A stretch of 64,000 bases of DNA from contig OX597820.1 of the NCBI GenBank assembly GCA_951406725.2, forward strand, positions 104,470,001 through 104,534,000. Direction: 5' to 3'. The notes under the pieces are model-generated. The model saw nothing but the letters and a program-made list of their open reading frames with translations, searched no databases and was not told the DNA's origin. Position 1 is the stretch's first letter, and every line of letters starts with the position of its first letter. This DNA is from Octopus vulgaris (taxonomy: Eukaryota). The translations under genes were made by a program, and so were the position numbers. Of this stretch, positions 1,241 through 39,233 are shown piece after piece.

Positions 1241-1324
1241 GTACATACATACATACATACATACATACATACATACAGACAGACAGACAGACAGACAGAC
1301 ACAGATAGATAGATAGATAGATAT
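1241..1324. repeat. (ACAT)n/(ACAG)n/(ATAG)n compound microsatellite abutting the LINE 3' end
   Basis: Seen directly in the sequence. Confidence 0.95.
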
Positions 1325-2772
1325 GTTTCTTTATTAGCCACACAGGGCTGCACACAGATAGAACAAATTACAAGGTAGAGCTTTTCTTTTGAATGTTTAA
1401 AAAAAAAAAAAAAAAAAAAAGTAAGGGGGAGTTTCGATCAAAAGGGATCGTAAAAGGAGAGAAGGAGGACAAAAAAGGGGGTTAAAAAAAGGGGAGAGGA
1501 AAAAAAAAAAAAAAAAAATTGATCAATAGGGATCGTTATCACAGAAATGTCAATATGAAGTGTAAAGGGGAGGACAGGTGAGGTTTACCCCGTGGAAAGA
1601 AAAGCCTACGGAAAAGACCACGGTAACCTCGGTCAATGAAGTCACATTTTATATTTCTTTTTTTTTTTTTTTTTTTCAAATAAGCAACTCTCTGTTTTCG
1701 ATTTCTGGGTTCATAGGACTATGCTCAAGGTGGCTTCGTCATTCATACGTGCCATTCTTGCTACATTCACCCATCTTTTTTTAAAACATTCGCTAGACAA
1801 AACTTGCCTCTCTACTCTCACTTTCCTTTTCAAGTGGTACTTGAAGAAGTTGATGAGAGATTGACCAGAGAGGAAAGTGTTTGTCTCCAATCCTTTCAGA
1901 CGCGTCCACCAGATACATTCTTTCGCCATAGCCACAAGGATGATGAAAATAGCTCTTCCTTCCCGTTTGAAGGAAGGAGGCGTGACAATATTGACGATAG
2001 ACTCAGCTGATAAACCGACTCGTCCCACACGTGACAGCAGTTGTTCGACATAAGCCCACAGGTCGGAAATGTTGGACACTGAACGAGTGCGTGCAGAACG
2101 GTTTCGTCGCTCTGACCGCATCTCGGGCAGGTCGGCCCCGTGTTTCTCGAGCCGTGTCTGTAGAGCTTATCCCGGAACGGGTAGCGCTTCTCGGTAGCAC
2201 TGCCAGGCCAGGGATCTCTGGAAGTTGTCCATGGGCCCTGGCCCGAAAGTCGTCCCGAACAGGCGGGTCAGGTACTCCTCGTCGACGTCCAGGTTCGCCC
2301 CGAGCTCGTCGTCGTACCTCCCCTCCACTAAACCCCTATAGAATGCTTTGGTTGTGTTGAAGTCACTTAAGGTCGACCCAGGACGGCAGAGTTGCTTGAG
2401 AGCAACGCGACACTCGCGGTGCCATTCGCCCTTCCTCGGCCTCTTTTTGATCCACGACTGCAGTTCGGTCATGGAGACGAGCTGCGGGAAAGCGTGCCTC
2501 ACAAACGGCGACCACACCTGTTCACCGTCGTCTACATAGAGCCAGAGATGTCGCAGTCTCAGCGCGTGTCTGCGCATCATCAACCACGGCATGCCCAGCC
2601 CTCCTTTTAACGGGTGTTGACAGCAAATGGATCGCCTGACCATCGGGACGCATCCTTTCCACAAGAAGCGAAAGAGGATGCGTTGTAGTTTGGTGATGGT
2701 AGGGTCGGGACAAGGTACGACGGTCAGGCGGTAGTAGATGACGGACGCGATGTACGTGTTCGCCACCTCCGC
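1325..2772 (-). mobile_element. L1/Tx1-like LINE, 5'-truncated copy 1 (ORF2 C-terminus with frameshifts plus 3' UTR)
   Basis: Translation includes FRFLWKG..VRR....P..GGLG, a post-RT motif of L1/Tx1, and KECIWWTR. The region collinear with copy 2's C-x2-C...H...C knuckle is present but frameshifted. The 3' end is ...agccctgtgtggctaataaagaaac followed by (TATC)n. Confidence 0.9.
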
Positions 2773-2773
2773 T

Positions 2774-2825
<52 letters not shown>

Positions 2826-2830
2826 GTAGG

Positions 2831-2884
<54 letters not shown>
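2773..2884. repeat. (GATA)n array between LINE copies 1 and 2
   Basis: Seen directly in the sequence. Confidence 0.95.
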
Positions 2885-2885
<1 letters not shown>

Positions 2886-2886
2886 A

Positions 2887-3900
2887 GTTTCTTTATTAGC
2901 CACACAGGGCTGCTCACAGATGGGTCAAATTACAAGGTAGAGCTTTTCTTTTGGGGGGTGAAAAAAAAAGTGGCGTAGATTTTCGATCAAAAGGGATCGT
3001 AAAAGGGGGGGGGGTGAAGAAACAAAAGAAGAGAAAAAGAAAAAAGAAGAAAAAGAAAAAAAGGGGGAAGAGGAAAAAAACGATCAATAGGGATCGTGTA
3101 TCACAGTGTCATGATGTACGGTGTAAAGGGGGAAGCAGATAAGATTTATCCGTGGGAAGAAAAACCTACGAAAAAGACCACGGTAACCTCGGTCAATATT
3201 GTTATATGTTACCACATTTGTTTGCAAGTGGGTAAGCCTCTGTTTTTAATTTCTGGGTTCATGGGATTATGCTCAAGGTGGCTTCGTCATTCATACGTGC
3301 CATCCTTGCTACATTCACCCATCTTTTTTTAAAATATTCGCTAGACAAAACTTGCCTCTCTACTCTCACTTTCCTTTTCAAGTGATACTTGAAGAAGTTG
3401 ATGAGAGATTGACCGGAGAAGAAAGTGTTTGTCTCCAATCCTTTCAGACGCGTCCACCAGATACATTCTTTCGCCATAGCCACAAGGATGATGAAAATAG
3501 CTCTTCCTTCCCGTTTGAAGGAAGGAGGCGTGACAATATTGACGATAGACTCAGCTGATAAACCGACTCGTCCCACACGTGACAGCAGTTGTTCGACTTA
3601 AGCCCACAGGTCGGAAATTGTTGGACACTGCACGATTGCGTGCAGAACGGTTTCGTCGCTCTGACCGCATCTCGGGCAGGTCGGCCCCGTGTTTCTCGAG
3701 CTGTGTCTGTAGAGCTTATCCCGAACGGGTAGCGCTTCTCGGTAGCACTGCCAGGCCAGGGATCTCTGGAAGTTGTCCATGAGCCCGAAAGTCGTCCCGA
3801 ACAGGCGAGTCAGGTATTCCTCGTCGACGTCCAGGTTCGCCCCGAGCTCGTCGTCGTACCTCCCCTCTACTAATCCCCTATAGAATGCTTGGTTTGTGTT
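2887..3900 (-). mobile_element. L1/Tx1-like LINE, 5'-truncated copy 2
   Basis: Collinear with copy 1 and has the same 3' end. Encodes CPRCGQSDETVLHAIVQCP (CCHC zinc knuckle). Confidence 0.9.
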
Positions 3901-3935
3901 ATGGATGGATAGATCGAAGAATAGATGGGTGGATG

Positions 3936-4000
<65 letters not shown>

Positions 4001-4012
4001 GTAGATAGATAA

Positions 4013-4074
<62 letters not shown>

Positions 4075-4127
4075 CGGTAGATAGGTAGGTAGGTAGATAG
4101 ATAGATAAATAGATAGATAGATGGATG

Positions 4128-4192
<65 letters not shown>

Positions 4193-4270
4193 GTAGATAT
4201 GTAGGTAGGTAGGTAGGTAGGTAGGTAGGTAGGTAGGTAGGTAGATAAATAGACAGTTAGATAGATAGAT
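3901..4270. repeat. (GATA)n/(GGTA)n array between LINE copies 2 and 3
   Basis: Seen directly in the sequence. Confidence 0.95.
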
Positions 4271-4435
4271 GTTTCTTTATTAGCCACACAGGGCTGCACA
4301 CAGACAGGACAAAATTACAAGGTAGAGCTTTTCTTTTGGGGGTAAAAGAAGGGGGTTTGGTTTTCGATCAAAAGGGATCGTAAATGGAAAGAAAGTGGAC
4401 AAAAAAAGGGGGCGTAAAATAAGATTTTTAAAAAA
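4271..4435 (-). mobile_element. L1/Tx1-like LINE, copy 3 (3' UTR only)
   Basis: Same gtttctttattagccacacagggctgc...caaggtagagcttttc...ttcgatcaaaagggatcgtaaa sequence as copies 1 and 2. Confidence 0.88.
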
Positions 4436-4460
4436 TAGATAGTTAGATAGATAGATAGAT

Positions 4461-4551
<91 letters not shown>

Positions 4552-4552
4552 C
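4436..4552. repeat. (GATA)n array
   Basis: Seen directly in the sequence. Confidence 0.95.
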
Positions 4553-4947
4553 AGAAGCTTTTGTTATCTAAGGAGTCAGACGATCAGACGCTGTTAAATC
4601 CTGTTTTGAATTGGACCAAACTCGTGACTGACCGATTAAAGGGAACTAATAAGAGTTATTAACTCGTGTTTAATCTGAAATAAATAGAAATAAGATTGGA
4701 AAGAAAATGGTGGCATTAGGTGTGGGATAGATGCTGGTGGATTAGTATAAATCAACAATGACTTCTATCCTATTCAGTACCGTAATGGGATTGTGTGTGT
4801 GTGTGTGAAGGAGAAATTGAGACGGTACAAAGGTATGATGGAAGTAATGAGTGAGTGGGAGTGACTTTGTATTTAGAAGGGTGTAAGGGAGAGGGAAATT
4901 GTGTGAGTGGAAGAGAAAGAAAGCCTGGTAAACAAAAACTAAAGAAG

Positions 4948-5343: not shown

Positions 5344-5756
5344 GGATCTTTTCGGTTTGAACGGCAGTTTTTTCTAGCGGTGTCATATGAAATTGTCACC
5401 CATAATTATGACCCTAATATCGATCTATTGCATTTCAATGTTTTAGGGTTAGGGTTAGGGGTGGGGGGAAGGGTATCTTTTTTTTCTTCTCAAATGTAAA
5501 TAAACCCAATCTGTTTCTTAAACGAGGGCATATTCATACGGCACAGAATGTTTTTACCTCAATAGACGTCATTGATTGGTTGAAATTGTGGAAATTGAAG
5601 AAAAAACAACAAATATCTTACAAACTATAGAATTTTCTCAATAATACCAAGAGAAAAAGATGTTTTATAAACACATTCTACCAGTATACGAAGTTTAAAA
5701 GTTTTTAGTTACGTGGAAATTATTTTATAAAATTGCCCTTCAAACCGAAAAGATCC
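5344..5756 (+). mobile_element. TTAGGG-containing MITE (TIR GGATCTTTTCGGTTTGAA...), complete copy
   Basis: Terminal inverted repeats at both ends and internal ttagggttagggttaggg. Flanks gaaagcga / gagagcgg match at 6/8, a degenerate 8-bp TSD. Confidence 0.9.
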
Positions 5757-11055: not shown

Positions 11056-11203
<148 letters not shown>

Positions 11204-11329
11204 TATATATATATATACACACGCACACACACACACACATATACACACATACATATATAATATATATATTTATATATATCACCGTGACCGACCAGACTAT
11301 CATCGCTGGTCACAATGTGCTTCGCATTG

Positions 11330-16142: not shown

Positions 16143-16372
16143 GCGGCGAGCTGGCAGAAGCGTTGGCACGCCGGGTGAAATGCGTAGCCGTAATTCGTCT
16201 GCCGTTACGTTCTGAGTTCAAATTCCACCGAGGTCGACATTGCTTTTCATCCTTTCGGGTCAATAAATTAAGTACCAGTTACGCACTGGGGTTTGATGTA
16301 ATCGACTTAATCCGTTTGTCTGTCCTTGTTTGTCCCCTCTGTGTTTAGCCCCTTTGTGGGTAGTAAAGAAAT
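16143..16372 (+). mobile_element. SINE family B, tail type 1 (Tx1-like 3' end), full length
   Basis: Head gcggcgagctggcagaag, Nin/Deu-like core cttttcatcctttcgggtcaataaattaagtacc, tail tttagcccctttgtgggtagtaaagaaat. Confidence 0.92.
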
Positions 16373-16400
16373 ATATATAACATACATACCATATATACTT

Positions 16401-18557: not shown

Positions 18558-18730
18558 ATATTCTTTCTACTATAGGTACAAGGCCTGAAATTTTGTGGGA
18601 GAAATTTTGTGGGAGAAATTTTGTGGACTCCAGGGCGCAACTGGTATTTAATTTATCGACCCCGAAAAGATGAAAGGCAAAATCGATCTCGGCGGAATTT
18701 GAACTCAGAACGCAGCGGCAGACGAAATAC
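18558..18730 (-). mobile_element. SINE family B, tail type 2
   Basis: Tail ttctttctactataggtacaaggcctgaaattt plus the core. Confidence 0.82.
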
Positions 18731-18732
18731 CT

Positions 18733-18958
18733 ATTTCTTTACTACCCACAAGGGGCTAAACACAGAGGGGGCGAACAAGGACAAACGGATTAATTCGATA
18801 CCATCGATCCCAGTGCGTAACTAGTACTTAATTTATTGACCTCGAAAGGATGAAAGGCAAAGTCGACCTGGGCGGAATTTGAACTCAGAGCGTAACGGCA
18901 AACGAAATACCACATAGCATTTCGCCCGGCGTGCTAACCTTTCTGCCAGCTCGCCGCC
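18733..18958 (-). mobile_element. SINE family B, tail type 1, full length
   Basis: atttctttactacccacaaggggctaaacacagag...ctgccagctcgccgcc. Confidence 0.92.
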
Positions 18959-19127: not shown

Positions 19128-19715
19128 TTTGTGTATGTGTTCTTTATCTTTGTATATGTATTCCTTATCCTTGTGCATGTGTTCCTTATGTTCGTGTATG
19201 TGTTCCTGATCCTTGTGTATGCGTTCCGTATGTTTTTGTATGTGTTCCTTATCCTTGTGTATATGTTCCTTATTGTGTATGTGTTTTTTATGTTTCTGTG
19301 CATGTGTTCCTTATGCTCGTGTATGTGTTCCTTATGTTTGTGTATGTGTTCCTTATGCTTATGTTTGCACTATTTATCTTTGTGTATGTGTTCTTTATCT
19401 TTGCGCATTTGTTCCTTATCCTTTTGTATGTGTTCCTTATGTTTGTGTATGTGTTCCTTATGCTTCCGTATATTTTTGTATGTGTCCCTTACCCTTGTGT
19501 TAATGTGTTTCTCATCCTTATGTGTATGTGTTCCTTATGTTTGTGTGTATATGTTCCTTATTGTGTATATGTTTCTTACGCTCGTGTATGTTCCTTTTAC
19601 ATATATTTATATTCTTTATATTTGTGAATGTTTTCTTTATATTTGTGTACATGTTTCTTATCTTTGTATATCTGTTCCTTACCTTTGTGTATGTGTTCTT
19701 TATCCCTGTGTATAT
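19128..19715. repeat. Degenerate ~21-bp minisatellite (consensus approx. tgtgtatgtgttccttat(g/c)(t/c)t)
   Basis: Periodic recurrence; the ORFs show a 7-aa period (FVYVFLM / RNTYTRI). Confidence 0.9.
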
Positions 19716-19796
19716 GGTCCTTGTGACAATCACTCTCACAAGCTTCCTTTGGCAAGGAAAGACATGCATTTTGCTTTTTTCTGGTGTCTCCGTTGA

Positions 19797-20130: not shown

Positions 20131-20940
20131 TTAATTGCTGAAAAGAAAAAGGTTGCACCTGCAAATACCGTAAGCTGCAAATATTTAGTCAAGAAGAATA
20201 ACCGTGGCTTTCAGTTGTTTATTTTCAATTTCCTGTCATGAAGAATTAATTATAACAGATTTATGCGCAGAAGGACAATGAAGTTGTAATAAATTACTTG
20301 TGCGCATGCCCCTTTGTGCCTGGAGGAGTTTGATTGATGTGTGAGCATGCATTTGTGTTTCTGTCTTTGCATGTGTGTATGTGTGTGTGTGTGTGTTTGT
20401 GTGTGCATATGTGTGTGCGTATGTATGCAGTGTATGATTTGTTCTGATATGTGTTTGTATATACCAGTATGTTTTATGTGTGTGTGCGTGTATGTGCGTG
20501 TGTGTGTGTGTATTCACACCGTGCGATCTACTTGAGAAATAGGTAAGTAAAAACATACACACCACGCCCAAAATGCATAGGCACGTCTGTGTGTGTGTGT
20601 GTGTGTGTGCGTGTGCGTGTGCGTGTGCGTGTGTGTGTGTGCGTATGCGTGTGCGCTTGTGTGTGTGTGTGTGTGTGAAAACGTGTTTTTCGTACGGAAT
20701 GAACTGAATATTTCAAGAAAATGAAAGCTAGTAATTACTATTCCAACATATTTCGCGGAATCTTTGTTGAAGACATCGTCTCCTATGTGAAGTTCTGAGA
20801 ACGAGTAGCGTTGTCAGAATCCATCCTACTCCAAACTACATACATGCGCGCACGCACACACACACACACACACAAACGGAAGCACGCGCACGCACACGCT
20901 TGCACGCTACAGTACGTTCGCACGAACGTGTATATTGTCT

Positions 20941-21107
20941 ATTTCTTTACTACCCACAAGGGGCTAAACACAGAGAGGACAGACAAACGGATTAAGTCGA
21001 TTATATCGACCCCAGTGCGTAACTGGTACTTATTTAATCGACCCCGAAAGGATGAAAGGCAAAGTCGACCTCGGCGGAATTTGAACTCAGAATGTAGCGG
21101 CAGGCGA
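20941..21107 (-). mobile_element. SINE family B, tail type 1, 5'-truncated
   Basis: Tail and core present. Flanked by the direct repeat cgaacgtgtatattgtc, a likely TSD. Confidence 0.9.
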
Positions 21108-21301
21108 ACGTGTATATTGTCATTGGTTTAAACCCCCCACTCCATGCTCATCATACACCAAGTAGACTTACGTTCAAACATGTTCCAGCAGTGACCAGTC
21201 GGCCTATAATTAATTATTCAGCCATAATGTATTTAGGGCTAGACTATATAATCCAAGATACATTATCTCTTCCCGTATTTTTTTAAAGCCCTTGAGGTGT
21301 G

Positions 21302-23713: not shown

Positions 23714-24152
23714 GATTATTAGAAGACAGCTTCTCCTGGTCACGTGAATGTAACACTATATTGCTGCGTTTGTCATCAATTATTGCTGGACGTCATCGAC
23801 ACAAATCAATATGAAATGTCCGAGACTAATCCATATCAGATCATAAGTATTTTATGAACGGCAAATTTCCAGTGACTATTGAGGAGATGGTAAGAGGGAG
23901 CGGAGCAGAGTTCCCAGTGGAACAGGTGGGGAGTGTGGTTGATACAATGAAATGGGGATAATGTGGTTGTTGCTGTTATTGTTGGCGCTGGTGGTGGTAG
24001 TGGTGGTGTTGTTATATAGCCCCAGGTCAGCCCTAGTTAAGCAGACCTATGAGCGGACACGTATGAACATCTAGAGACAGACGGGCGGACGAACGGACAG
24101 CCAGACAAACAGACAGGCTGATAGATAGACAGACAGACAGACAGGTAGATAG

Positions 24153-24226
<74 letters not shown>

Positions 24227-24234
24227 CGTATATG

Positions 24235-24347: not shown

Positions 24348-24361
24348 GCAGTGATAAATAT

Positions 24362-24580
24362 ATTTCTTTATTGCCCACCAGGGGTTAAACACAGAGTGGA
24401 CAAACAAGGACAGGCATAGGTATTAAGTCGATTACATCGATCCCAGTGCGTAACTGGTACTTAATTTATCGACCCCGAAAGGATGAAAGGCAAAGTCGAC
24501 CTCGGCGGAATTTGAACTCACGACGTAACGACAGACGAAATACGGCTACGCATTTCGCCCGGCCTGCTAACGTTTCTGCC
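24362..24580 (-). mobile_element. SINE family B, tail type 1
   Basis: atttctttattgcccaccaggggttaaacacagag plus core and head. Confidence 0.9.
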
Positions 24581-25977: not shown

Positions 25978-27490
25978 GTCTCTGTCTCTGTCTCTGTCTC
26001 TCTCTCTGTCTGTCACACACACACACACACACATACACACATGCACAGACGCACACACGCTTGCATATACATCCCATTTTCCATATTTGTAATCTTTTAC
26101 TTTTATACATATCGACACGTGTATTCGCACACATGCACGCTGACATACACAAAAATATTAAGTAACTCTAACAGACTGCATCCTCATTAATCCATATAAT
26201 GCGCATGTTCAATCAAACAGACGAACACTAATCAACGTAGCAGCCGGTATTCGGTGACTTGACCGGTTATAGATAATAATCAAATTTCTGTCAGATCCAG
26301 ACCATACTATTGTGAAAAAAGCGAAGTATATATTATAATGTGGTACTGGATACCATTAACGGTCGGAATATTTTTAAAAATGCATCTGCTTATACGATTA
26401 TGCAAATAATGTTAAGTCAAAACGTAGATATCTAATAAAAAGTAAATATATTTTCAGATGTTCATACAAATGCATACATTCACCCATATATTTCTAGGAG
26501 TACAATGACATATAATTATATTCATTCAGATATAACGATTTTAGTCTGTGCAGACGCACACCTACGCCCACATAATCAATACAGTGGCTCACACGAAAAC
26601 GAATCAATATGATTTCCTCCGTACAACAAGTTCAGACACATCCCTTGCATTGTTTTTAATTTTCTTTGTTTTCTTTTCGTAATTTCAGTATAAGTACTGT
26701 ACTGCTGAAGCATACTGTATCAGTAATTCACAAAATGCTGACTTTATTTGCATGTCAGCACCAACTCCATTTGTATTTCATTACGCTGCCAGTAATTTAG
26801 TGCGAAATTTGAAAGTCGTTAAAAAGAATATTAAAGTCACTGAAATTTGAACCAATTAAAAAGCAAAATGAACAAAAGCTATATTTCCTCCACTGGTCGT
26901 TTATTATTTCATTTAGTTCATTTATCCATTTGACTAGTTTAATTCTCATAAAGGTAAAAATAATACAGAGTAGATTCGATAAAATATGGTTGACATACAT
27001 CGTGTCAACAGTCATAAAATTTGAATAAAATCTTCTTATAACTGCTATATTAAACTTCAAAATGATATTTTATATATTTCAGTTAATATTTTGTATCGTA
27101 CGAGGCGAATGAATATATTTATCCCTTGTTCATTGCCTAAAAGATTGCTTGAATTGCATGTTTTCTCTGAAATGGAGATTTTCAAAAGTCTTTCATTTCT
27201 GATATCAAACACGCCAGATTCAATTACATGAACAACGCAGCTTCCTATTGCTATTATTTCTTTAAAAACTTGTGGATGTTGTCGGTCTAATGCTATAACT
27301 TGAATTCGATTTGATGAGAACAAAACCTATAACTAAGCGTGTGTTTGAATAAAATGTAACGGTAATTACGTCATACGAATCCAAAGTTTACTTATGCCTC
27401 TACATAATGTCTATGTAAATGCATACACAGCTATAGCATTTGTTTTGTGTGCAAGAGTGTTTGTGTATATATATGTGTGTGTAGAAGCTG

Positions 27491-27557
<67 letters not shown>

Positions 27558-27594
27558 TTATATACATACATACACACACGCACATATAAATATA

Positions 27595-27673
<79 letters not shown>

Positions 27674-27736
27674 TATATATATATGTGTGTGTGTGTATGT
27701 ATATATATTTATGTATGTGTTATATATTTATATATA

Positions 27737-28450
27737 CTAGCATATGGGATCATATGATTCTTCGTTAATTTCCGTAAAACTACTTTATATCTTTATGCTT
27801 TGTAGAGAGCAGGAATGAAAAGAGAGAAGAAAGTGAAAAGGTGACATTTGTTTTGAAGTGAGAGCAGAAAGTGAAAGTGAAAGATGTATGTACGTGTATA
27901 TAAAATGGACGTGTGTGCGTGTGCGTGAGAAAGAGAGAGAGAGAGATAGGGAGAGTGAGTGAGTAAAGGTGTGTGTTGTCATGTATATATTTTTTTTTGT
28001 ATGTATGTGCAAGTGGCACTCACTCTCCCCCTCTCTCTCTCTCTCTCACGCACACACCTCTTTCATATACACGTACATGAATACATATGCATACATCTCT
28101 TTTGTATGTATGTGTGCGTGTGCATGTGTGTATGTGTGAAAGAGAGAGAGAGAGAAAGAAGGGGAGAGTGACTGTATTTCCTCATAACATTGCGAAATGG
28201 ATGTCTTTTTAATGGATTTTTTGGGTCGTGGCTTATTTTAATACAATATTTATGTTTACATTTTCATAAATATTTGTCTGAGTAGAATTCTACGCATGCG
28301 TTAAACATCAGGCGAAAGTAAAACATTAGGAGCAAATCGAAATATTGCCCGAAAATGACCTCAAAATTGTGCGACCGCGGTTATTTTAATAGTAAAAACG
28401 AGTTATTGTACCAAAAACATTGTTTATTTGGTAACCTTTATATATAGAGA
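27737..28450 (-). mobile_element. Probable non-autonomous Helitron
   Basis: Minus-strand 5' end A|TCTCTATATATAAAGG matches the other two Helitron starts. The candidate 3' end ...catatgatcccatatgCTAG|T at 27737 is less certain. Confidence 0.55.
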
Positions 28451-29237
28451 TAGATGATAAGCAGCTTTTTTTTTTTTTATTATAGTACAGATGTGACTAA
28501 TTCGGAGAAACATTACTTTCATTATTGACACATCGTCACTGTCGTCATGCAACACGTTGTAATTTTAGCTCAAATTGGAAGTGTGAAACTATTTTCACTT
28601 TCTAATGAAATCTGGTCGTAGTAGAACAGTGTATTTCAAATAACTATATCTGGTTGTTGAGATAACATAGAAAATATGCAAATAAAAATAAAGTTTATTT
28701 GGTAGACGAAAGATTACTGAATCTCTTGATACCCCATACGTCAAAATCGGCATCTCAGTTTTTAAATGCATAAAGAACATACGCACGCGGGCGAGCACAC
28801 ACATACAAACTGTCTTGTATATATATAGATAATACACACATACATACAAACAAATATATTGATGTGTATGTGTGTTTGTACACATGTACATTTGCATGCG
28901 TACGACTTAGTATATTTTTATGTTTGCATGTTTGTTTGCAGCATGCATGCATGTATATGTAATATTCATGCTGTAATCAGGGCACGTGGTTTCTGTCCAC
29001 GTGTTTGAGAAACCCAGTAATGAAGGTCACACACACCCTATGATAACCATTAAAATTAGATCCCTTTGTCAAGGTGATTGCTATCTAATTCATTGAACTT
29101 GATGTCTAAATATCCAGAGGAAGTCAATGAAAATCGCCTCCTGAGGGTTATATTATGCTTATATATGCATGAATATATGTATATAAATGCATGTGTATAC
29201 CGATGTATATATATGTATAAGTGTGTGTATGCATGCA

Positions 29238-29280
<43 letters not shown>

Positions 29281-29827
29281 GCATAAACATACACACACCA
29301 CATACACATAGATGCACACACACACACACACAAGATGGTAGCTATGGATTTATATGTAAGCCAATCTATTTATGTCCAGTAATGCATAATGTATATTAAT
29401 CCTTGAATGTTTGCAAACATGCATGCGTGTGTGTGTGTGTGCGCGCGCGTGGGTGCGTGTGTAGCCGTGAATTAAAAACCGACTGCCTTAAGCACAACAA
29501 CCCAACAATGTTGCCCCGTCCACCCCTCGGCCTTCGAACCCCTCACTGCCCAACTAACAAAACATTACGACATATCAAGTGTTGACAGTGAAATAATAAA
29601 AATTCAGTTTTCTTCAACATGATCCCTCCAGGCCAAATCCCACCCGAAGCTGTATTAAATATAACCAGCATTTTGTGTTTTAATTATATAACAGTAAGTA
29701 ACTGTAAGCGATACAAGCAAATTATGTACCTGTAACTAGGGCAGAAACAAATGCAAATTGAAAGAAAAAAAATGCCAATTAACAATACCTGTTTGTATTA
29801 TATAAAATAAATGAAAAAAGAAAAGAA

Positions 29828-29992
29828 ACGTCCGTCTTTATATCCTGAGTTCAAATTTCGCCGAGGTCGACTTTGCCTTTCATGCTTTCGGGCTCGATTA
29901 ATTAAGTACCAGTGAAACACTGGTGTCGATGTAATCGACTAGACCCCCACCCCCAATGTTTCAGGCTTGGTGCCTATAGTAGAAAGGATTAT
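29828..29992 (+). mobile_element. SINE family B, tail type 2, 5'-truncated
   Basis: Core plus tttcaggcttggtgcctatagtagaaaggatt. Confidence 0.87.
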
Positions 29993-30007
29993 TTTTTTAT
30001 AAAAAAG

Positions 30008-30171
30008 CGTCTGTCTTTACGTTGTGAGTTCAAATTTTGCTGAGGTAGACTTCGCCTTTTATCCTTTCGCTGTCGATAAATTAAGTCCCAGTCAAGTACA
30101 GAGGTTGATGTAATCGACTTTTCCCCTTCCCCAAAATTTCAGGCCTTGTGCCTATAGTAGAAAGGGTTATT
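30008..30171 (+). mobile_element. SINE family B, tail type 2, 5'-truncated (tandem with the previous copy)
   Basis: Core plus aaatttcaggccttgtgcctatagtagaaagggttatt. Confidence 0.87.
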
Positions 30172-30363
30172 TAAAAGAAAGCCAGTTATAATTTATTTCC
30201 TCCGTGGTAAATCCACCATTGGAAAAAGCTTTTGTTCTGTTCCCTTCCTTTGATGCTCAAAGTAACGGTTAATCTCATTTAATCCTTAATTCGACCTTCA
30301 TGCATGCATGTATATTTATTGAAAGTGGAACGCGTCATGTCGACTCTGTCTCTCTCGATACAT

Positions 30364-30591
30364 GGCGAGCTGGCAGAGACGTTAGCTCGCCGGGCGAAAT
30401 ACGTAGCCGTATTTCGTCTGCCGTTACGTTCTGAGTTCAAATTCCGCCGGGGTCGACTTTGCCTTTCATCCTTTCGGGGTCGATTAAATAAGTACCAGTT
30501 ACGCACTGGGGTCGATATAATCGACTTTATCCGTTTGTCTGTCCTTGTTTGTCCTCTCTGTGTTTAGCCCCTTGTGGGTAGTAAAGAAATA
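30364..30591 (+). mobile_element. SINE family B, tail type 1, full length
   Basis: Near-consensus copy with CpGs intact. Confidence 0.93.
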
Positions 30592-30611
30592 GATACATAC
30601 ATACGCGCACG

Positions 30612-30654
<43 letters not shown>

Positions 30655-30711
30655 CCATTTCCATAAGTCAGAAAGACAGGTATGCGTATAATTGCCAGTA
30701 GAGTATGTTAC

Positions 30712-30941
30712 TCAAAGTATGCAGTATTATAGATCCATTATAGCCTGATCTTACTAATCGGTTTCGTGTAAGATATTAGGTAATCTAATAACAGTGTTCG
30801 TCATAGAGAATTCTACTCTCTAGTCAATGCAGGCTGACTCTGACGGGTGCAGTTATTAGATAATTGGTTAATTCCTAATATCTTGCACAAAAATAATTGG
30901 TAAGATCGGTTCTAATGAGCCCATAATACTGTATACTTTGA
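30712..30941. mobile_element. Imperfect ~230-bp foldback (MITE-like)
   Basis: Left arm tcaaagtatgcagtattat...gatcttactaat...gtgtaagatattagg...atctaataac is mirrored by gttattagat...cctaatatcttgcac...attggtaagatc...ataatactgtatactttga. Confidence 0.75.
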
Positions 30942-31103
30942 TTCTTTTGTTCTCTTTATTCACTCTTGTTCTTGAAAAATCAACTAATATTGTGGTTTAT
31001 GATGTATTCGTTTTTATATTTTGTTTTAACTGATATAATGAAATTATAATAACGTGAGATATATATTCTATGGAATAAAGCTCAGTTTAGTAAATCGTTT
31101 GTT

Positions 31104-31235
31104 CATATATCTGAAGAATTGCCACTTGCTAGTATTGCTGGAATAATACAGATACGATGTATTATCACATCTATTATACAATATTTCAACAATGATCTTC
31201 TGGTAAAATGGTGATGAAACAATTGTAGTATTATG
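31104..31235 (+). ncRNA. Type I hammerhead ribozyme motif with extended stem II
   Basis: CATATAT-CTGAAGA-ATTGCCA...TGGTGAT-GAAA-C(AATT)G-TA^GTATTATG. The core is intact and loop III is palindromic. Confidence 0.6.
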
Positions 31236-31519
31236 CAATAATGTTGCAATAAATTCCTAATATTATATTTATACAGATATTGACAGATTTCCAGATGTGT
31301 CCTCAGTAAGACGATTGATATTCCCTATAAACTCGCGTATTATAGCCGATACTCGTTGGCGAGCTTTCTAAAGCTAACTACAAGGTTATTAACCGAACTG
31401 AATATATACATATATATGCATGTTTAGTCAATTTAAATTAAAAAACGATTCAAATACACGAATAAAAAAATGAAAGAAGTAAAATAACGAATATATATGT
31501 ATACACACACACACACACT

Positions 31520-31556
<37 letters not shown>

Positions 31557-31579
31557 TTATATATATATATACACACACA

Positions 31580-31748
31580 GGTGGCGACCCCTGTTGTACT
31601 CTTTCGCCCCGACTTTCTCTCACTCTTTCTTCTTGTTTCTTGAGTAACGCTGCGATGGACTGGCGTCCCGTCCAGCTGGGGGGAACACATACGCCACAGA
31701 AACCGGGAAACAGGGCCCATGAGCCTGGCTAGGCTTGAAGGGCGCATA
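31580..31748 (+). mobile_element. SINE family C/D 3' half
   Basis: gctgcgatggactggcgtcccgtccagctgg...gaaaccgggaaac...catgagcctggctagg. Confidence 0.8.
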
Positions 31749-32154
31749 AATATATACATATATATATGTATGTGTCTTTGTGTCTACGTTTGTCTCTTCC
31801 TCAACCATCGCTTGGCAACCGATGATCGTGTGCAAAAGACACATATAGATAGATAGATAGATTGATAGATAAATAAACAGCAAGGTTCATACAGGGGAGG
31901 TCTCAGTACACTTGATTGTAGTGTAAAAAATCATTATCTATTTATAGATAATTCAATTGTAGTTTGTTTGTTTCGAAAGCAGTAGGCCAAGGACTGTCAA
32001 TAACTCAATCAGGGACGCTGATGGAGAATCGATTGGCCTTGACCTACCCGTTTTGATAGTGTTGCGTAATTGTGAGGTGTTACTTATTTATACCTAAGTA
32101 CATATAGACTCATATATGTATACACACACACACACACATATATATATATGTATA

Positions 32155-32370
32155 CTCTTTTACTCTTTTACTCTTTTACTTGTTTCAGTCATTTGACTGT
32201 GGCCATGCTGGAGCAACGCCTTTAGTCGAGCACATCGACCCCAGGACTTATTCTTTGTAAGCCTAGTACTTATTCTATCGGTCTTTTTGCCGAACCGCTA
32301 AGTAACGGGGACGTAAACACACCAGCATCGGTTATCAAGCGATGTTGGGGGGACAAACACAAACTCATAA

Positions 32371-32407
<37 letters not shown>

Positions 32408-32578
32408 CATATATACGACGGGCTTCTTTCAGTTTCCGTCGACCAAATCCACTCACAAGGTTTTGGTCAGCCCGAGGCTATAGTAGAAGACACTTGCCCA
32501 AGGTGCCCCGCAGTGGGACTGAACCCGGAACCATGTCGTTGGTAAGCAAGCTACTTACCACATAACCACTCTTGCGCG
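32155..32578 (-). mobile_element. SINE family A, full length
   Basis: (tactctt)n tail, internal (CA)n(TA)n, and head. Confidence 0.93.
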
Positions 32579-32579
32579 A

Positions 32580-32633
<54 letters not shown>

Positions 32634-32689
32634 TGCAAATATTATTATTCCTAAAGGAGACTACGGCAGCGGTACCGGAGTACTGGATA

Positions 32690-33901
32690 TTAGTGATCCC
32701 ATAAATAATGCAGTTTTTTATACTTCTTTTATTTTTCAAACAAAGTTCTTTTTCATCTAAAATATACTCTCCTTCATTTTCTACAATGTTCTTACATCTA
32801 TCTGGTATACTAACAAGGCCCCTCTTCCAAAATTCTCTTGTCCGTGACGAAAAATACCCCTCCTGTACTGCTCTGACATCGTCTACAGAATTCATATTTT
32901 TTCCGTCCAAATGATCTTGAAGACTGTGGAATAAATGATAATCAGATGGCGCAATGCCCGGCGAATATGGTGGGTGGGACATCGTTTCCCATTCAAGCTG
33001 CTTCAACCTTTGGAATGTCATCCTCGCTATATATGGCCGAGCATTATCCTGATGGAAGAACACCTTTCGTCCTGAAACCAGGAACGGTCGTTTTTCTTCT
33101 AGCTCTGACATAGGTCGCTCAAGCTGCTTACAGTGGAATAAATCTTTCATATCCCACCAAACAGATAACACCTTACGTGAGTAAAGACCTTCTTTAGCCT
33201 GGGGTACCAGTGTTTCTCCTTTCCCTACAAACTATCTTTGGTGCTTGACATTTTTATAGAGAACCCATTTCTCGCCACCAGTCACTATTCAGTCCAAAAA
33301 ATATTCATTCGTGGGATATGGCAGCAGAGAAGAGCACATATTCATTCTCTGCGCGCGATTAGACTAGGAAAGTGTGTGAGGAACCCACTGACACAATTTT
33401 CTGACTTTTCCGATGGCACGCAGGTGTCGATGAATAGTTGAATGACCAAATCCAAGCTTCTCTGTTGGTTCCTCAACAGTTACGATGGGATTTTGTTTTA
33501 TCAGGGTTTCCAGCATGTCCTCGTCGAGCTCTACAGATCTTTCAGAAAGAGGCTCGTCTTCTAGGCTCGGAATTTCTAGAGCCACCGTTGACACTGGCTT
33601 ACGCTTATTGTCCGATCCCCATATACTACATTAATATTCCTCGCACTTACCGTTGCGTTGTTGCCTTTATTGAACTCATAAAGCCAAAATATGCTGAATG
33701 TATTCCTTTGTCACTTCCATTATAGCTTTAAAAAAATAACTGTTAAAATCGAACTGCACTCTTCAAAAACTTGCACTAAGAATAAGTACAAGATACAATT
33801 ACTACCTGCTTTTATAGCAAGTTGAAAGAAGTAGTTTTTCCCGTCCTCCGACTTTAAGTTCATGCAATTGAAAATACCGCATTATTTATGGGATGACCCA
33901 A
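32690..33901 (-). mobile_element. Mariner (DD34D-type) DNA transposon, full length, decayed
   Basis: Imperfect TIRs (ttagtgatcccataaataatgc / gcattatttatgggatgacccaa), TA TSD on both sides, about 1.2 kb. Confidence 0.93.
32750..33720 (-). pseudogene. Mariner transposase pseudogene
   Basis: Starts MEVTKE at 33720. Motifs WVPHTL, MLSVWWD, HQDNARP and HPPYSPGIAPSDYHLF are split across frames by stops and frameshifts. Confidence 0.93.
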
Positions 33902-33936
33902 TATATGTATGTATACGTGTATGTGTATATATATGG

Positions 33937-33998
<62 letters not shown>

Positions 33999-34015
33999 AT
34001 CTATATCTGTTGTGC

Positions 34016-34071
<56 letters not shown>

Positions 34072-34126
34072 CTACTTATATGAGGCATACTCACATACTG
34101 ACAGACACGCACACTCACACACACAT

Positions 34127-34356
34127 ATTTCTTTACTACCCACAAGGAGCTAAACACCGAAGAGACAAATAAGGACAGACAAACGGATTAAGTCGATTAT
34201 ATCGACCCCAGTGCGTAACTGGTACTCAATTTATCGACCCCGAAAGGATGAAAGGCAAAGTCGACCATGGCGGAATTTGAACTCAGGGCGTAACGGCAGA
34301 TGAAATGCTGCAAAGTATTTCGCCCAGCGTGCTAACGATTCTGCCAGCTCGCCGCC
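34127..34356 (-). mobile_element. SINE family B, tail type 1, full length
   Basis: Head, core and tail all present. Confidence 0.92.
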
Positions 34357-34555
34357 TTTTGTACACACACATACAAACCTGTATGTAAGTGTGTAAGTTT
34401 ACATGTAAGTTCTCCATGTAGAAACGCCTTTTGATCCGATATCGGAGTTTCTAGTTGGTCGCTCGATCTGCGAGCTATCGCAGCCAAATCTCTCTTAATT
34501 CATATCCTACCGTTTTAAATACGGAAGGTACATACTGGATAATCACGTAATCGTG

Positions 34556-34586
34556 GTCATCATCGTCATCATCATCATCGTCATCG

Positions 34587-34651
<65 letters not shown>

Positions 34652-34712
34652 TTCACCCTCATCATCATCATCAGCAGCATCACCATCATCATCATGGTCG
34701 TCGTTATCATCT
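34556..34712. repeat. (CAT)n microsatellite
   Basis: Seen directly in the sequence. Confidence 0.95.
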
Positions 34713-35054
34713 TCCTAATTATTCTGGGTCCTTTGTTCGCGAGTCTAAACCACAAATACGCCCCCTCCACTAGCACCCAGTGCGTCTAAGGTCACATATT
34801 TTATATCTGTTAAATACTCACAACATAGTCCAGTGATAAGAGCGGCCTCTAACACATAAGAGCCTAAGAACCTAATAAAGCAAGGCCACTTAATTGATAC
34901 TATGTCAATTACCTTGTGAAACAGCGACCTATATAGAGGCAAATTCGTTTAAAGTGTTTGTATTACTGTTTGCCGACAGGCATCGTCGCTACTTTCCTTG
35001 GATTCAGTAGTTTTATTATGTAAGTAAAAATTGTCCATCATATAGAGATACACA

Positions 35055-35510
35055 AGCATCGGTTGTCAAGCGATGGCGGAGGGACAAACTCAGACATACA
35101 TACACATAAATATATATACATACATTTATATATACGTCGGGCTTCTTTCAGTTTTCGTCTGCCCAATCTTAGCCCGAGGCTATATTAGAAGACACTAAGG
35201 CGGCGAGCTGGCAGAACCGTTAGCACGCTGGGCGAAATGCTTAGCGGTATTTCGGCTGTCGTTACGTTCTTAGTTCAAATTCCGCCGAGGTCGACTTTGC
35301 CTTTCATCCTCTCGGGGTCGATAAATAAAGTACCAGTTTCGCACTGGGTCGATGTAATCGACTTAATCCCTTTGTCTGTCCTTGTTTGTCCCCTCTGTGT
35401 TTAGCCCCTTGTGGGTAGTAAAGAAATATATATTAGAAGACATTTGCCCAAGGTACCACGCAGTGGAACTGAACCCGGCACCATGTGGTTGGGAAGCAAG
35501 CTTATTACAA
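35055..35510 (-). mobile_element. SINE family A interrupted by a family B insertion
   Basis: Family A sequence resumes after 35428, across the duplicated tatattagaagaca. Confidence 0.85.
35199..35428 (+). mobile_element. SINE family B, tail type 1, full length, with 14-bp TSD
   Basis: tatattagaagaca occurs at 35181-35194 and 35429-35442. Confidence 0.93.
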
Positions 35511-35528
35511 CAAGGAAGCTTTCTACAT

Positions 35529-35782
35529 CAGTGGTTCTCAGCCGGAGTCCTTATGACCATTGGGTATGCATAAAAGATTTTATTTTTAAAAGTTATGTGC
35601 ACTAGAATAGCTTATATTTCGTCAATACACAAAACATTTCAACAACTTTTTATACAATTCCTAAAAATATCCAATTATAAAAATATAACAGGATTTTTCA
35701 AACATCGACTGGTTACGAGCTCCCTCCCGAGTTAAACAGGAATGAAAGGATTATATAGGTAAGAAGGAGTTGAGAACAACTG
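35529..35782. mobile_element. hAT-type MITE
   Basis: TIR CAGTGGTTCTCA / TGAGAACAACTG; 8-bp TSD ttctacat / ttctacaa. Confidence 0.85.
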
Positions 35783-36199
35783 TTCTACAATACATAATCG
35801 TTCAAATTGTTAGAAATAAAAGTTAAGTCCCCCCTCAGATTACAGCTTAAGATCTATAAATGGCAAGGACATATTGAATAATTTAGTTCTTTTTATAGAT
35901 AAAAGCTGATCACAGTGAGAACATCTTTGATCGTTTGTCTGTTCCATAGTGGTTGGTCGATCACCTGAGAATACACAACGACTGCCGCAGGGTCTAGTGA
36001 AACCAAGTTATTTAGGTTATTTTTGTCATCAAAAGTAGCAATTCTCAAACTCACAATTACCAAAACCTTCTATTTTGCTCCTCTGCCTTCTTTATTAATG
36101 AGAAAACAATATAGTGTTTACAGCCGTAAACTTTTTACCAGATTTCTCAGTATTAATGCTTTAAGAAAAAAATATATATATAATTCGACCCTCTTTCTT

Positions 36200-36480
36200 C
36201 CTTCCCATTCTTTGATAATTTTATGGATGCAAAAGATGTTGTATCCAAATAATTCTTCGTTCTTTGTCATGGCGTTGGACAAATTAAAAAAATTCAGATG
36301 TCATTTCAATTATATTAAACTTAGCAGTTTGTCCTTCGTCTTCTCGATCCTCGCAGCCATCCCTGTCCCATAAGAAACACCGATCTAAAGACACTAGAAT
36401 CTGTGGATGAGACCTGATGAAACATGCAAATGTTATCTTCTCATTCAATCCAAAGAACACAAACATCATCCAAAACTTTT
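36200..36480 (-). mobile_element. Possible highly decayed Gypsy-type RT fragment
   Basis: VFFGLN..ITF..QILVSLDRCF and a downstream ELFGYNI loosely echo MPFGL.NA..TF and FLG..I. No intact YxDD. Confidence 0.3.
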
Positions 36481-37454
36481 TTTTTATTCAGAAGCCGTCA
36501 GATGCTTCCAGGAACCACTGTAGTAAACAATATAAGTTTTATATTTGACAATTTCTCATAAGGACTTATTTAGAGATTTTACTGAAGTTTCTTCCAGGGA
36601 CAAATCATCATGAGCCGTTGTCAAGCATATACAAGAACATAAACGTATATATATGCACAAAAGTGCGTTAATATACAGTTTTGTGGCATACGCGCATACT
36701 GACAGACACACACCAGTGTAGTAGTCACTCTTAATGTCTCATGCACATACACAGTCTCTCATACACGTACCTGCACACGCATTCACAGTTGCGTACAGGC
36801 GTACATTTACACAGATGGACATTCAAAACCAAAATTATCAAATTTCAAACGACCAACTGATTGTGTTGCCCTCCACAGATATTTACGACAGTAAACAACC
36901 ACGAAATAAAATTTCTTCCCATTGGTCTTACACGTATAACTACGTCGATCAATAAACAGGCTACTCATAGAGTTATATGACTATGAAACTTCAGAGAGTT
37001 CTGTTTTTGAAAAAAAAAACCTCAATCAAGATTCATATCCTTGAGAGGTCGCACGTGCTCAGCAAGAAGCGCAGCCTCATCTCTCTATCGTTTCCAATCA
37101 TGAGCCAACCTCATTTTCCCTTCTGTCTTTCTCGCTTCCGAGTCTTTGATGTAACTCAAGCACCAACCCCTTATAGTCTTTTTATACTTCTTTGTACCCG
37201 TATTTTTTAATAAAACCATCTCTATATTCTGTAAGTTAACAAATGACAGCCGATTGGTCAGAACCACTACAATATCGAACGAAACATCATGAGGCATTTA
37301 GTTATGGACTTTATGTTTTAAGTTAAGATCCCGCTTGAGATCAACTTTACCATTCATCATTTTGGATTCGATAAAACAAACTACTCGCTCCCCCACAAAC
37401 GTTTGTAACTTTATGCCAATATTAGATATCAATATTATAATTTAACAAGTTGAG

Positions 37455-37631
37455 GGAGTGTGTGAGTCGATTACATCAATCCCGGTACTTGACTGTTACT
37501 TTATTTTATTGACACCGAAAGTATGAAAAGGAAATTTGAGCTCGTCGAGATTTAAACTCAAAACATGAAGAATCAGAAGAAATGTTGCTAGGCAATTTGC
37601 CCGACGTGCTAATGATTTTGCCAGTTTGCCA
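37455..37631 (-). mobile_element. SINE family B, diverged
   Basis: agtcgattacatc...ggtactt...ccgaaagtatgaaaagg...cgtgctaatgattttgccag. Confidence 0.75.
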
Positions 37632-37996
37632 CATTAAAATAACCAATAACAAATACAGTTCTAACTATATTTGTACTTTTTTTCTATATATAAATCAGGG
37701 AAGACAGATATGGCTAATTTGTCTTAAGGTAGGTGCTTACAGGTATCACCGCACAACAGCCCATGACGGTCGTGGTCCCATGAATAATATAGTGTCGTTA
37801 TATTTCATTTGAAATGATACCCACTTCTTCAGTGAAGTTCCCTGACCCATAAGAATCTGAATATCACTCTCAGTATAACTTATGACCTAAGCAGGTTCTT
37901 CCATATTTGTGAGACTGATGTAGCCGATGCCCAGCTTGAACATTTGCAAATAAATGTCTGCAGGAAAATAATAATACTAATAACCGAGCAGTGGCT

Positions 37997-38510
37997 TTTA
38001 TGGATTCTGATCTTAACTGATTGGAAGTGTTATCATGTACGTGTTTTGTCTTGGTGTAAAAGATGGGCCACAGCAAATATTCTGCTCAGTACTGCAGATT
38101 TGCTTGTCAGTTGCTTGATCTTCACCAGTTAAGCATGACCCTTGGTGGCTGACAGTATGTACATCTCTGATCACGAGCAGGAGTAGTAGGGGGAGCATCA
38201 TAATCATGTGCTGAGAGGGATTCTTTGGGGTTTTAATTATTCACCTCAGGAAACATGGATGTTTTGTTCATCATCCTTAAATAAGGGGCTTTTTGAACGG
38301 GATGGCTCACTCGACCTGATGAAAATTCTAACTGGGTCATGCACTTTTTATCTTGATATGAGATCACTATGTCGCATACATATGGTTGTGATGCGTATAC
38401 CTAGCGTAACCTTATCAGATGGGTAGTCATGATGGGTGTATTGGGCTTCGTATATTTGTACCCCAATGTCACTTTGATAGCATGCGCTGCTCTTCCGTTC
38501 AATAATAATA
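37997..38510 (+). mobile_element. Probable retroposon 3' region ending in (AAT)n
   Basis: GC-richer block with a sharp end in aataataataa. Only one copy in the window; family not assigned. Confidence 0.35.
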
Positions 38511-39233
38511 AAAACTCTGGTAATAGATTATGTCCTTTAATGATAGCCAATGCCTAGATATTAGCATTAACTGGGTGGTAATTTATGTTTATTATTCAAG
38601 GGTGGAAAAGAAGGGTTTAAAAGAAATAGGAGCGATTATAGTGGCTGTGACAAAAAATGAAAAACAAAAACAAAATTAGACTTTCCAATGCACGTTGTTT
38701 GGCCATGTGATGGTTGGGATTAGCAACATTGTGTATCCTATGAACGTATTTTATAGATTAGGATCAAAACAGCTTGAGTGATTTAGACGGATTAATCAGA
38801 TTAGGAACATATCCTTCGTTAGTCCATTCACTTTTCGATTTGGTGTGGTGTTGATTCCTCTGTTATGTCGGAGCGGCGAGAAAGAGAACAGAATTTGTGT
38901 TTAGATGTGATAGATGTGAACTCAAGCGTGATGAATTTACTTCAGAGACTGGAATCCACTGAAGTTGGCTTCGATTGGTGAAACCGCATTCGGTGAGTTA
39001 TGGTTTAATCCCCTTATTTTGATTTTGTTGAATCTGTTGTGACCATGTGAGAAAACAAAGCAAAAATTGGTGAAATAGTAAAGCAGGTGTATATATTTGC
39101 ATTCATCTGGTGGGTAACTTTCTTATGGAGAACTAGGGTACGCCACGATACACTAATTACTATACAGTACTAGTGGGTAAATCTTTAACTATTGTAATAA
39201 CTGTATAGGGATAATGACTTTTACAGCGAAGAA

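Follow-up and report, generated by a model that had tools for sequence, protein, structure and literature searches.

Long interspersed nuclear elements (LINEs) with simple repeats as targets have been described in several clades. Among Tx1 elements, the targets reported are repeats of TC (Kibi), TTC (Koshi), and TTCC and TTTC (crocodilian Tx1 families), and a family has been counted as target-specific when the same type of target occurs in over 20% of its flanks (PMC4494074). The microsatellite targets listed in the retrieved part of PMC3812793 are ACAY, AC, TC, TTC, and TAA, with GATA not among them, and the mechanism of microsatellite targeting is called not well understood there. Here we describe a locus in a 64-kb window of the Octopus vulgaris genome (contig OX597820.1, 104,470,001–104,534,000; all coordinates below are positions in this window), where three LINE copies are stacked in one (GATA)n array. 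The stack, which a first-pass annotation of the window had described as the work of a candidate GATA-specific retrotransposon, is confirmed; from this one locus, GATA is likely a new target for an already known microsatellite-targeting LINE habit.

All three copies lie on the minus strand, in one orientation relative to the repeat strand, and combine an intact 3′ end with a variable 5′ truncation. Copy 1 (1325–2772; 1448 nucleotides, nt) retains the C-terminal ~350 codons of open reading frame 2 (ORF2; 1711–2772), with the frame lost between about 2174 and 2069, and a 3′ untranslated region (UTR; 1325–1710) that contains AATAAA at 1330–1335 and ends 5 nt beyond it. Copy 2 (2887–3900; about 1014 nt) consists of an ORF2 remnant with one in-frame stop and a zf-RVT zinc finger, together with a 3′ UTR (2887–3258) of a type unlike that of copy 1, and copy 3 (4271–4432; about 162 nt) comprises only the final ~160 nt of the 3′ UTR. 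The 3′ terminal ~45 nt (1325–1370, minus strand, in copy 1) are conserved in all three, with a small predicted hairpin ahead of AATAAA, and each copy ends 5 nt past this signal without poly(A). These coordinates agree with the earlier account of three same-strand copies that have one 3′ end and different 5′ truncation points. The 5′ junction of copy 1 is exact: in two of four sequencing runs, 40–42 contigs exit the window sequence at 2772 and continue in ORF2, which fixes the truncation point.

The repeats around the copies differ in purity. The 3′ flank of copy 1, at the left edge of the host array, is a compound microsatellite, (TACA)n-(GACA)n-(GATA)5 (about 1217–1324), in which just five GATA units adjoin the element before GACA and then TACA units follow. 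Copies 1 and 2 are separated by a (GATA)n array of about 28 units (about 2773–2886) that is nearly pure, with 98% matches; a degenerate array of about 92 units with GGAT and GGTA blocks follows (about 3901–4270), and an outermost array of about 30 units (about 4433–4555) forms the 5′ flank of copy 3. The annotated presence of GATA on both sides of each copy thus holds in that GATA-type repeat touches six of six junctions, and fails as to purity at the left flank of copy 1 and at the 5′ side of copy 2, where the junction is a degenerate GGAT/GATA edge. Beyond the outermost array is DNA unrelated to the LINE, and no element was found upstream by blastn or tblastn, so that this array is indeed not the tail of any visible element. 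The same searches did not turn up the LINE body anywhere else in the window; the claim that no copy occurs elsewhere therefore stands for the body and not for the last ~42 nt, which recur as the tail of a short interspersed nuclear element (SINE; see below). Three more GATA arrays in the window (11058, 24153, and 27493) hold no element, and these element-free arrays make up 175 of the 60,685 bases outside the locus (0.3%; 1.3% with the arrays of the locus itself). At three of the four GATA loci (1241–1323, 11056–11204, and 24096–24227), GACA units precede the GATA units, lying 5′ on the GATA strand.

A target-site duplication around copy 3 is new beyond the first-pass annotation. The 24 nt that follow the 3′ end of copy 3 (4247–4270), including a GTTA variant unit, reappear at its 5′ junction (4433–4456) with one mismatch (23 of 24 nt identical), the first 2–3 A's of the 5′ copy possibly being the element's own. 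This was the single best match among the 1,319 24-mers from the GATA-type arrays of the window, and in the seven such arrays the GTTAG variant has exactly two occurrences, which lie on either side of copy 3. The actual length of the duplication is between 12 and 24 nt. Since the variant unit is common to both sides of copy 3 and no element lies upstream, the outermost array predates copy 3. Moreover, no two copies have the same letters between the end of the element and the first TATC (offsets of 1, 2, and 3), and so the repeats fit a target better than one encoded tail. That the copies were inserted independently, into a (GATA)n array already in place, as had been claimed for all three, is well supported for copy 3 by the duplication with its variant units, and is likely for copies 1 and 2 from their 5′ ends, UTR types, and polymorphic letters.

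Between copies 1 and 2, 16 of 631 positions differ in ORF2 (2.5%) and 67 of 356 positions in the UTR (19%, a value inflated by low-complexity tracts), and the UTR of copy 3 differs from the other two by 11% and 18%; the UTRs are thus as distinct as had been noted. Divergence between the first two 3′ UTRs (1325–1710 and 2887–3258) is about seven times that of ORF2, and conserved blocks between their variable linkers form small hairpins (two stems of the CGATC/GATCG type; one near 1611–1640). We listed 40 of 80 polymorphic sites of the family, 22 of which lie in the span common to copies 1 and 2; at 6 of these 22, copy 2 has the alternative letter found in the family. Loose-end consensuses from the run contigs at 1590 and 1702 are, by eye, closer to the UTR of copy 2 than to that of copy 1, which makes the UTR types a family-level variation.

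To what group the element belongs can be judged from copy 2 and its relatives. The zf-RVT zinc finger of copy 2 (PF13966, E 3e-08) recurs in seven longer homologs with 62–73% identity, four of which also contain a reverse transcriptase (RT) domain; the nearest named eukaryotic homolog is from Argonauta hians (63%). In the same 90% cluster as one longer homolog is a protein, P0129, that carries APE, RT, and zf-RVT domains and shows 64–67% identity to the window copies in the part they have in common. APE and RT are missing from the window copies themselves, and the domain layout is read from this relative. When P0129 was compared with the solved structures of L1 and R2 only, its best match was human L1 ORF2p (E 1e-50, residues 38–829; R2, E 4e-22). 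The zinc finger, the domains of P0129, and the match to L1 ORF2p together support the assignment of the stacked element to the L1 group of LINEs, in line with the first-pass annotation.

A sister lineage with 37–42% identity was found at 40 of 44 loci (L081–L118, L121, and L124), all from a single assembly; the four others were short, with 28–32% identity, and were excluded. The assembly is bacterial and labeled Arenicella, and the contigs in question are likely host contamination. They hold full-length LINEs, with an ORF1 bearing a CCHC knuckle and an ORF2, arranged head to tail with a period of ~6.4–6.9 kb. In all 40 loci the ends follow AATAAA and carry neither poly(A) nor a microsatellite; a missing poly(A) is therefore a trait of the lineage, and GATA is not. 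Neither the window protein nor alignment A1 yielded related loci in metagenomes, genomes, or viral contigs, and alignment A2 yielded none in viral contigs and 80 in metagenomes, nearly all with 24–33% best-segment identity and one with 45%. A screen of all 124 loci for GATA runs and UTR likeness found a run of three units in one locus, where a contig ended, and nothing resembling the UTR.

Within the L1 group, membership of the Tx1 clade is likely for the stacked LINE. Type I ORF1 is linked to Tx1. The CCHC zinc knuckle in ORF1 was detected in the sister lineage only (L099; PF00098, E 1.5e-4), the stacked LINE's own ORF1 not having been recovered, and such a knuckle, rather than Transposase_22, characterizes Type I ORF1 (PMC5203782). 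Vertebrate L1 typically has a 3′ poly(A) tail (PMC5203782); with poly(A) in 0 of 3 window copies and 0 of 40 sister-lineage ends, a vertebrate-type L1 is excluded and the wider L1 group is not. L1-Tx1 elements have been reported as expanded in coleoids (PMC8967140). Homolog searches with this LINE lineage returned no protein named Tx1, and a protein-cluster search gave unnamed RT/APE/zf-RVT clusters only. Our tree contained no named Tx1 reference; it placed the element in a 10-row clade that includes the Argonauta protein (100/100) and has an unnamed sister group. In this tree, some 33 residues in the row for the window are read out of frame, and the outgroup is subject to long-branch warnings. 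Two proteins of this LINE lineage (P0006 and P0133) carry the name of a bacterium, Herbaspirillum sp., in their database records, which likely reflects contamination.

The element is abundant in public data. Of the 24 sequencing runs listed, 20, from 12 studies, contained 0.86 or more of the sampled words; in each of three large runs, 26,002–38,887 contigs fit copy 1, and summed depth over ORF2 was 0.3–2.5 million vs mostly 20–90 for single long contigs, contig counts and depth in such runs not being copy numbers. As a rough estimate, we infer a family on the order of 10^4 copies. Under random insertion, we calculate that a genome would hold between 4e-7 and 0.09 same-orientation triples, using rough inputs of 10^4–10^5 copies, four arrays per 64 kb, array lengths of 100–625 nt, and a genome size that we take to be 2.7 Gb. 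Such low expectations call for a strong local preference. Arrays of TA, CA, and TATG are commoner than GATA in the window (31, 32, and 15 runs), yet they are without a LINE copy, and so are its 9 GA runs and 1 TTC run.

On balance, we consider it probable that three 5′-truncated copies of an abundant LINE of the L1 group, and probably of its Tx1 branch, were inserted successively into an existing (GATA)n array because this repeat is the likely preferred target of the family. The order of events below is reconstructed, and its biochemical steps are borrowed from what the family of elements suggests. ORF2p would recognize the conserved 3′ end of the RNA, with its predicted hairpin and AATAAA and no poly(A), and the APE endonuclease would nick the (GATA)n strand. 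Reverse transcription would be primed at the nick and halt early at varying points, and a cut in the second strand would give rise to the duplication of 12 to 24 nt. Every insertion would split the array and leave fresh target on both sides, and the copies would for this reason stack in one orientation. A preference shared by the whole family, with the endonuclease as its determinant, would be consistent with this sequence of steps.

The window also contains an abundant SINE of ~230 nt, presumably of tRNA origin, with 17 blastn matches: copies at 30362–30592, 35202–35428, 16145–16373, 34126–34353, 24361–24580, 18731–18955, and 20939–21108, plus 10 partial matches. No tRNA gene was detected in the window with ARAGORN. 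Over its final 42 nt, the SINE matches the end of the LINE at 33 positions (score 49 vs a maximum of 24 in 1,000 shuffles), which suggests a candidate partnership between the two; the literature passages searched name no partner LINE for an octopus SINE. The 3′ junctions of the SINE all start with TA, its sites are mixed and AT-rich, some copies lie in or near TA, TACA, and TG repeats, and candidate duplications of 9–19 nt occur at six of seven complete 3′ ends. At 18618–18955, a complete SINE is immediately succeeded by part of another, which starts from about position 48 of the unit.

Several observations weigh against a GATA preference of the family or against separate insertion of the copies. 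The evidence comes from one locus with three readable copies. Pure GATA alone matches the duplicated 24-mer of copy 3 at 21 of 24 positions, and the case for its duplication depends therefore on two diagnostic letters; no target-site duplication was seen at copy 2, and the candidate at copy 1 is uninformative pure repeat. Copies 1 and 2 agree at 16 of the 22 polymorphic sites and are thus close relatives. Among the loose ends of run contigs, GATA appears in 0 of the 22 rows listed (of 2,353), and of the 10 listed 5′-side loose ends, 7 are element sequence and 3 (1884, 2631, and 2734) are non-GATA. This evidence is weak, because the run filter and the breaking of contigs at repeats may hide GATA junctions, and, with 1318–1528 masked when the run contigs were placed, the loose ends exclude the 3′ flanks of other copies. 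The sister lineage stacks without a microsatellite in 40 of 40 loci, which means that stacking alone needs no repeat target. Finally, the tail-sharing SINE is outside GATA in all seven copies with a 3′ end, the nearest GATA being 137 nt away; either the SINE is mobilized by a sister family, or the choice of GATA is not up to the nuclease alone, and the SINE thus weakens the case that the endonuclease, rather than the 3′ end of the RNA or local chromatin, determines the target.

Unlikely in our estimation, and first among the alternatives, is that priming is guided by the RNA: a read-through transcript ending in (UAUC)n would pair with nicked (GATA)n, the endonuclease would be weakly specific, and the preference would be inherited via the RNA end. 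The lack of poly(A) in the three window copies and in the sister lineage would agree with this, as would the landing of a SINE that has 33 of the 42 terminal nt of the LINE in mixed, AT-rich sites. Slippage at repeat tails has been described for UnaL2 (PMC3747384), and the length of the duplication at copy 3 cannot be fixed within pure repeat, so that some of its units may be tail. Perfect annealing, however, would keep the register, whereas the 3′ junctions differ by 0–2 letters before the repeat; the SINE, at 79% tail identity, may belong to a sister family; and target choice in this group has been ascribed mainly to the endonuclease (PMC4494074). The same idea can be pressed further, to the rather doubtful proposal that RNA and not nuclease sets the target across the LINE radiation, in which near-identical ORF2 proteins would go with fast-changing 3′ UTRs, the read-through (UAUC)n end of a transcript without poly(A) would pair with GATA arrays and propagate its own address, and the SINE, mobilized by the same proteins but without such a tail, would land elsewhere.

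We also think it quite unlikely that the family has a broader preference for simple repeats or AT-rich DNA, or that an accessible local hotspot gathered the three copies. The three non-GATA rows among the 5′ loose ends, the SINE copies at TA, TACA, and TG repeats, and the GACA and TACA units in the left flank all point this way, but the commoner TA, CA, and TATG arrays of the window hold no copy, and every one of the six junctions touches GATA-type units. It is very unlikely that the arrays are mostly tails of the elements, copies 1 and 2 having arisen by template jumping or by insertion into the expanded (TATC)n tail of a neighbor. The length and near purity (98% matches) of the array between copies 1 and 2, the lack of a duplication at copy 2, and the head-to-tail arrays formed by the sister elements are in keeping with tails; against them, the array at 4433–4552 has no element upstream and shares a variant unit across copy 3, and is hence older than copy 3, and three GATA arrays of the window are free of any element. 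Unequal exchange between GATA arrays could also have duplicated the element in tandem, with deletions afterward. Such tandem duplication, which the first-pass annotation had named as a possible refutation, is hardly credible and we reject it, since copies 1 and 2, for all their 97.5% identity in ORF2 and their agreement at polymorphic sites, have different 5′ ends, the UTRs are 11–19% apart, copy 2 has family alleles missing from copy 1, and copy 3 has a duplication of its own.

Other repeats were noted in the window. A sequence resembling a miniature inverted-repeat transposable element (MITE) at 355–923 has 88-nt inverted arms that are 93% complementary and 393 nt apart. A second MITE-like element (5344–5756) has 28-nt inverted arms and internal TTAGGG units, and similar TTAGGG-bearing pieces occur at 104–130, 12095, 41564, and 50922. 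A minisatellite at 19128–19722 consists of about 29 degenerate copies of a 21-bp unit.

We found no report of a GATA-targeting LINE in the literature searched, to which Repbase, Dfam, Kojima and Fujiwara 2004, and the supplements of PMC4494074 did not belong. The retrieved passages of PMC4758252, PMC4824008, PMC8869645, PMC5786205, PMC9115989, PMC5203782, and PMC3747384 name none. If the preference is family-wide, GATA is added to the few microsatellites known as LINE targets, and Tx1-type microsatellite targeting extends to molluscs; perhaps 10^4 copies, by the rough estimate above, would then provide an extensive natural sample for studying how simple repeats are read by APE elements, and GATA markers in these animals would often be split or flanked by one repeat family. 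Whether the nuclease or the RNA controls targeting could be tested directly on this LINE and the SINE that shares its tail, since the two land at different sites. None of this alters what is known of the abilities of Tx1-type elements.

Among described elements, UnaL2, with (TGTAA)n, and the octopus RTE-2_OV resemble this LINE in that the 3′ end adjoins a microsatellite and poly(A) is lacking (PMC3747384, PMC9115989). They belong to other clades, and the repeat here is also present on the 5′ side, with a duplicated variant unit. A repeat-tailed LINE of the L2 or RTE type was considered and rejected on account of the repeat on both sides, the three different 3′ junctions, and the duplicated variant unit at copy 3. 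Waldo, Mino, and Dong represent the R1 and R4 clades. Like the octopus LINE, they insert into simple repeats (ACAY, AC, and TAA, respectively), and the target of Waldo is likewise a 4-nt unit (PMC3812793). They differ from it in clade and in repeat unit. Xenopus Tx1L makes a target duplication near 23 nt. With Tx1L, whose target is Tx1D, and with crocodilian Tx1-Mar and SINEU, our locus has in common the link of a SINE to a LINE, and sequential insertions of SINEU-3 give tandem copies around a duplicated target (PMC4494074). The target of Tx1L and Tx1-Mar is a DNA transposon, however, and SINEU shares the target of its LINE and has poly(A) (PMC4494074), whereas the octopus SINE does not share the target of the LINE and no poly(A) was seen. 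The nearest parallel in habit is with Kibi, Koshi, and the crocodilian Tx1 families, which are likewise APE-type L1-group elements lodged in a microsatellite that flanks them on either side. Kibi lies in (TC)n and Koshi in (TTC)n, in vertebrate hosts, whereas the flanks here are GATA-type and the host is a cephalopod; by its target the octopus LINE belongs to neither, and the likeness is one of target habit.

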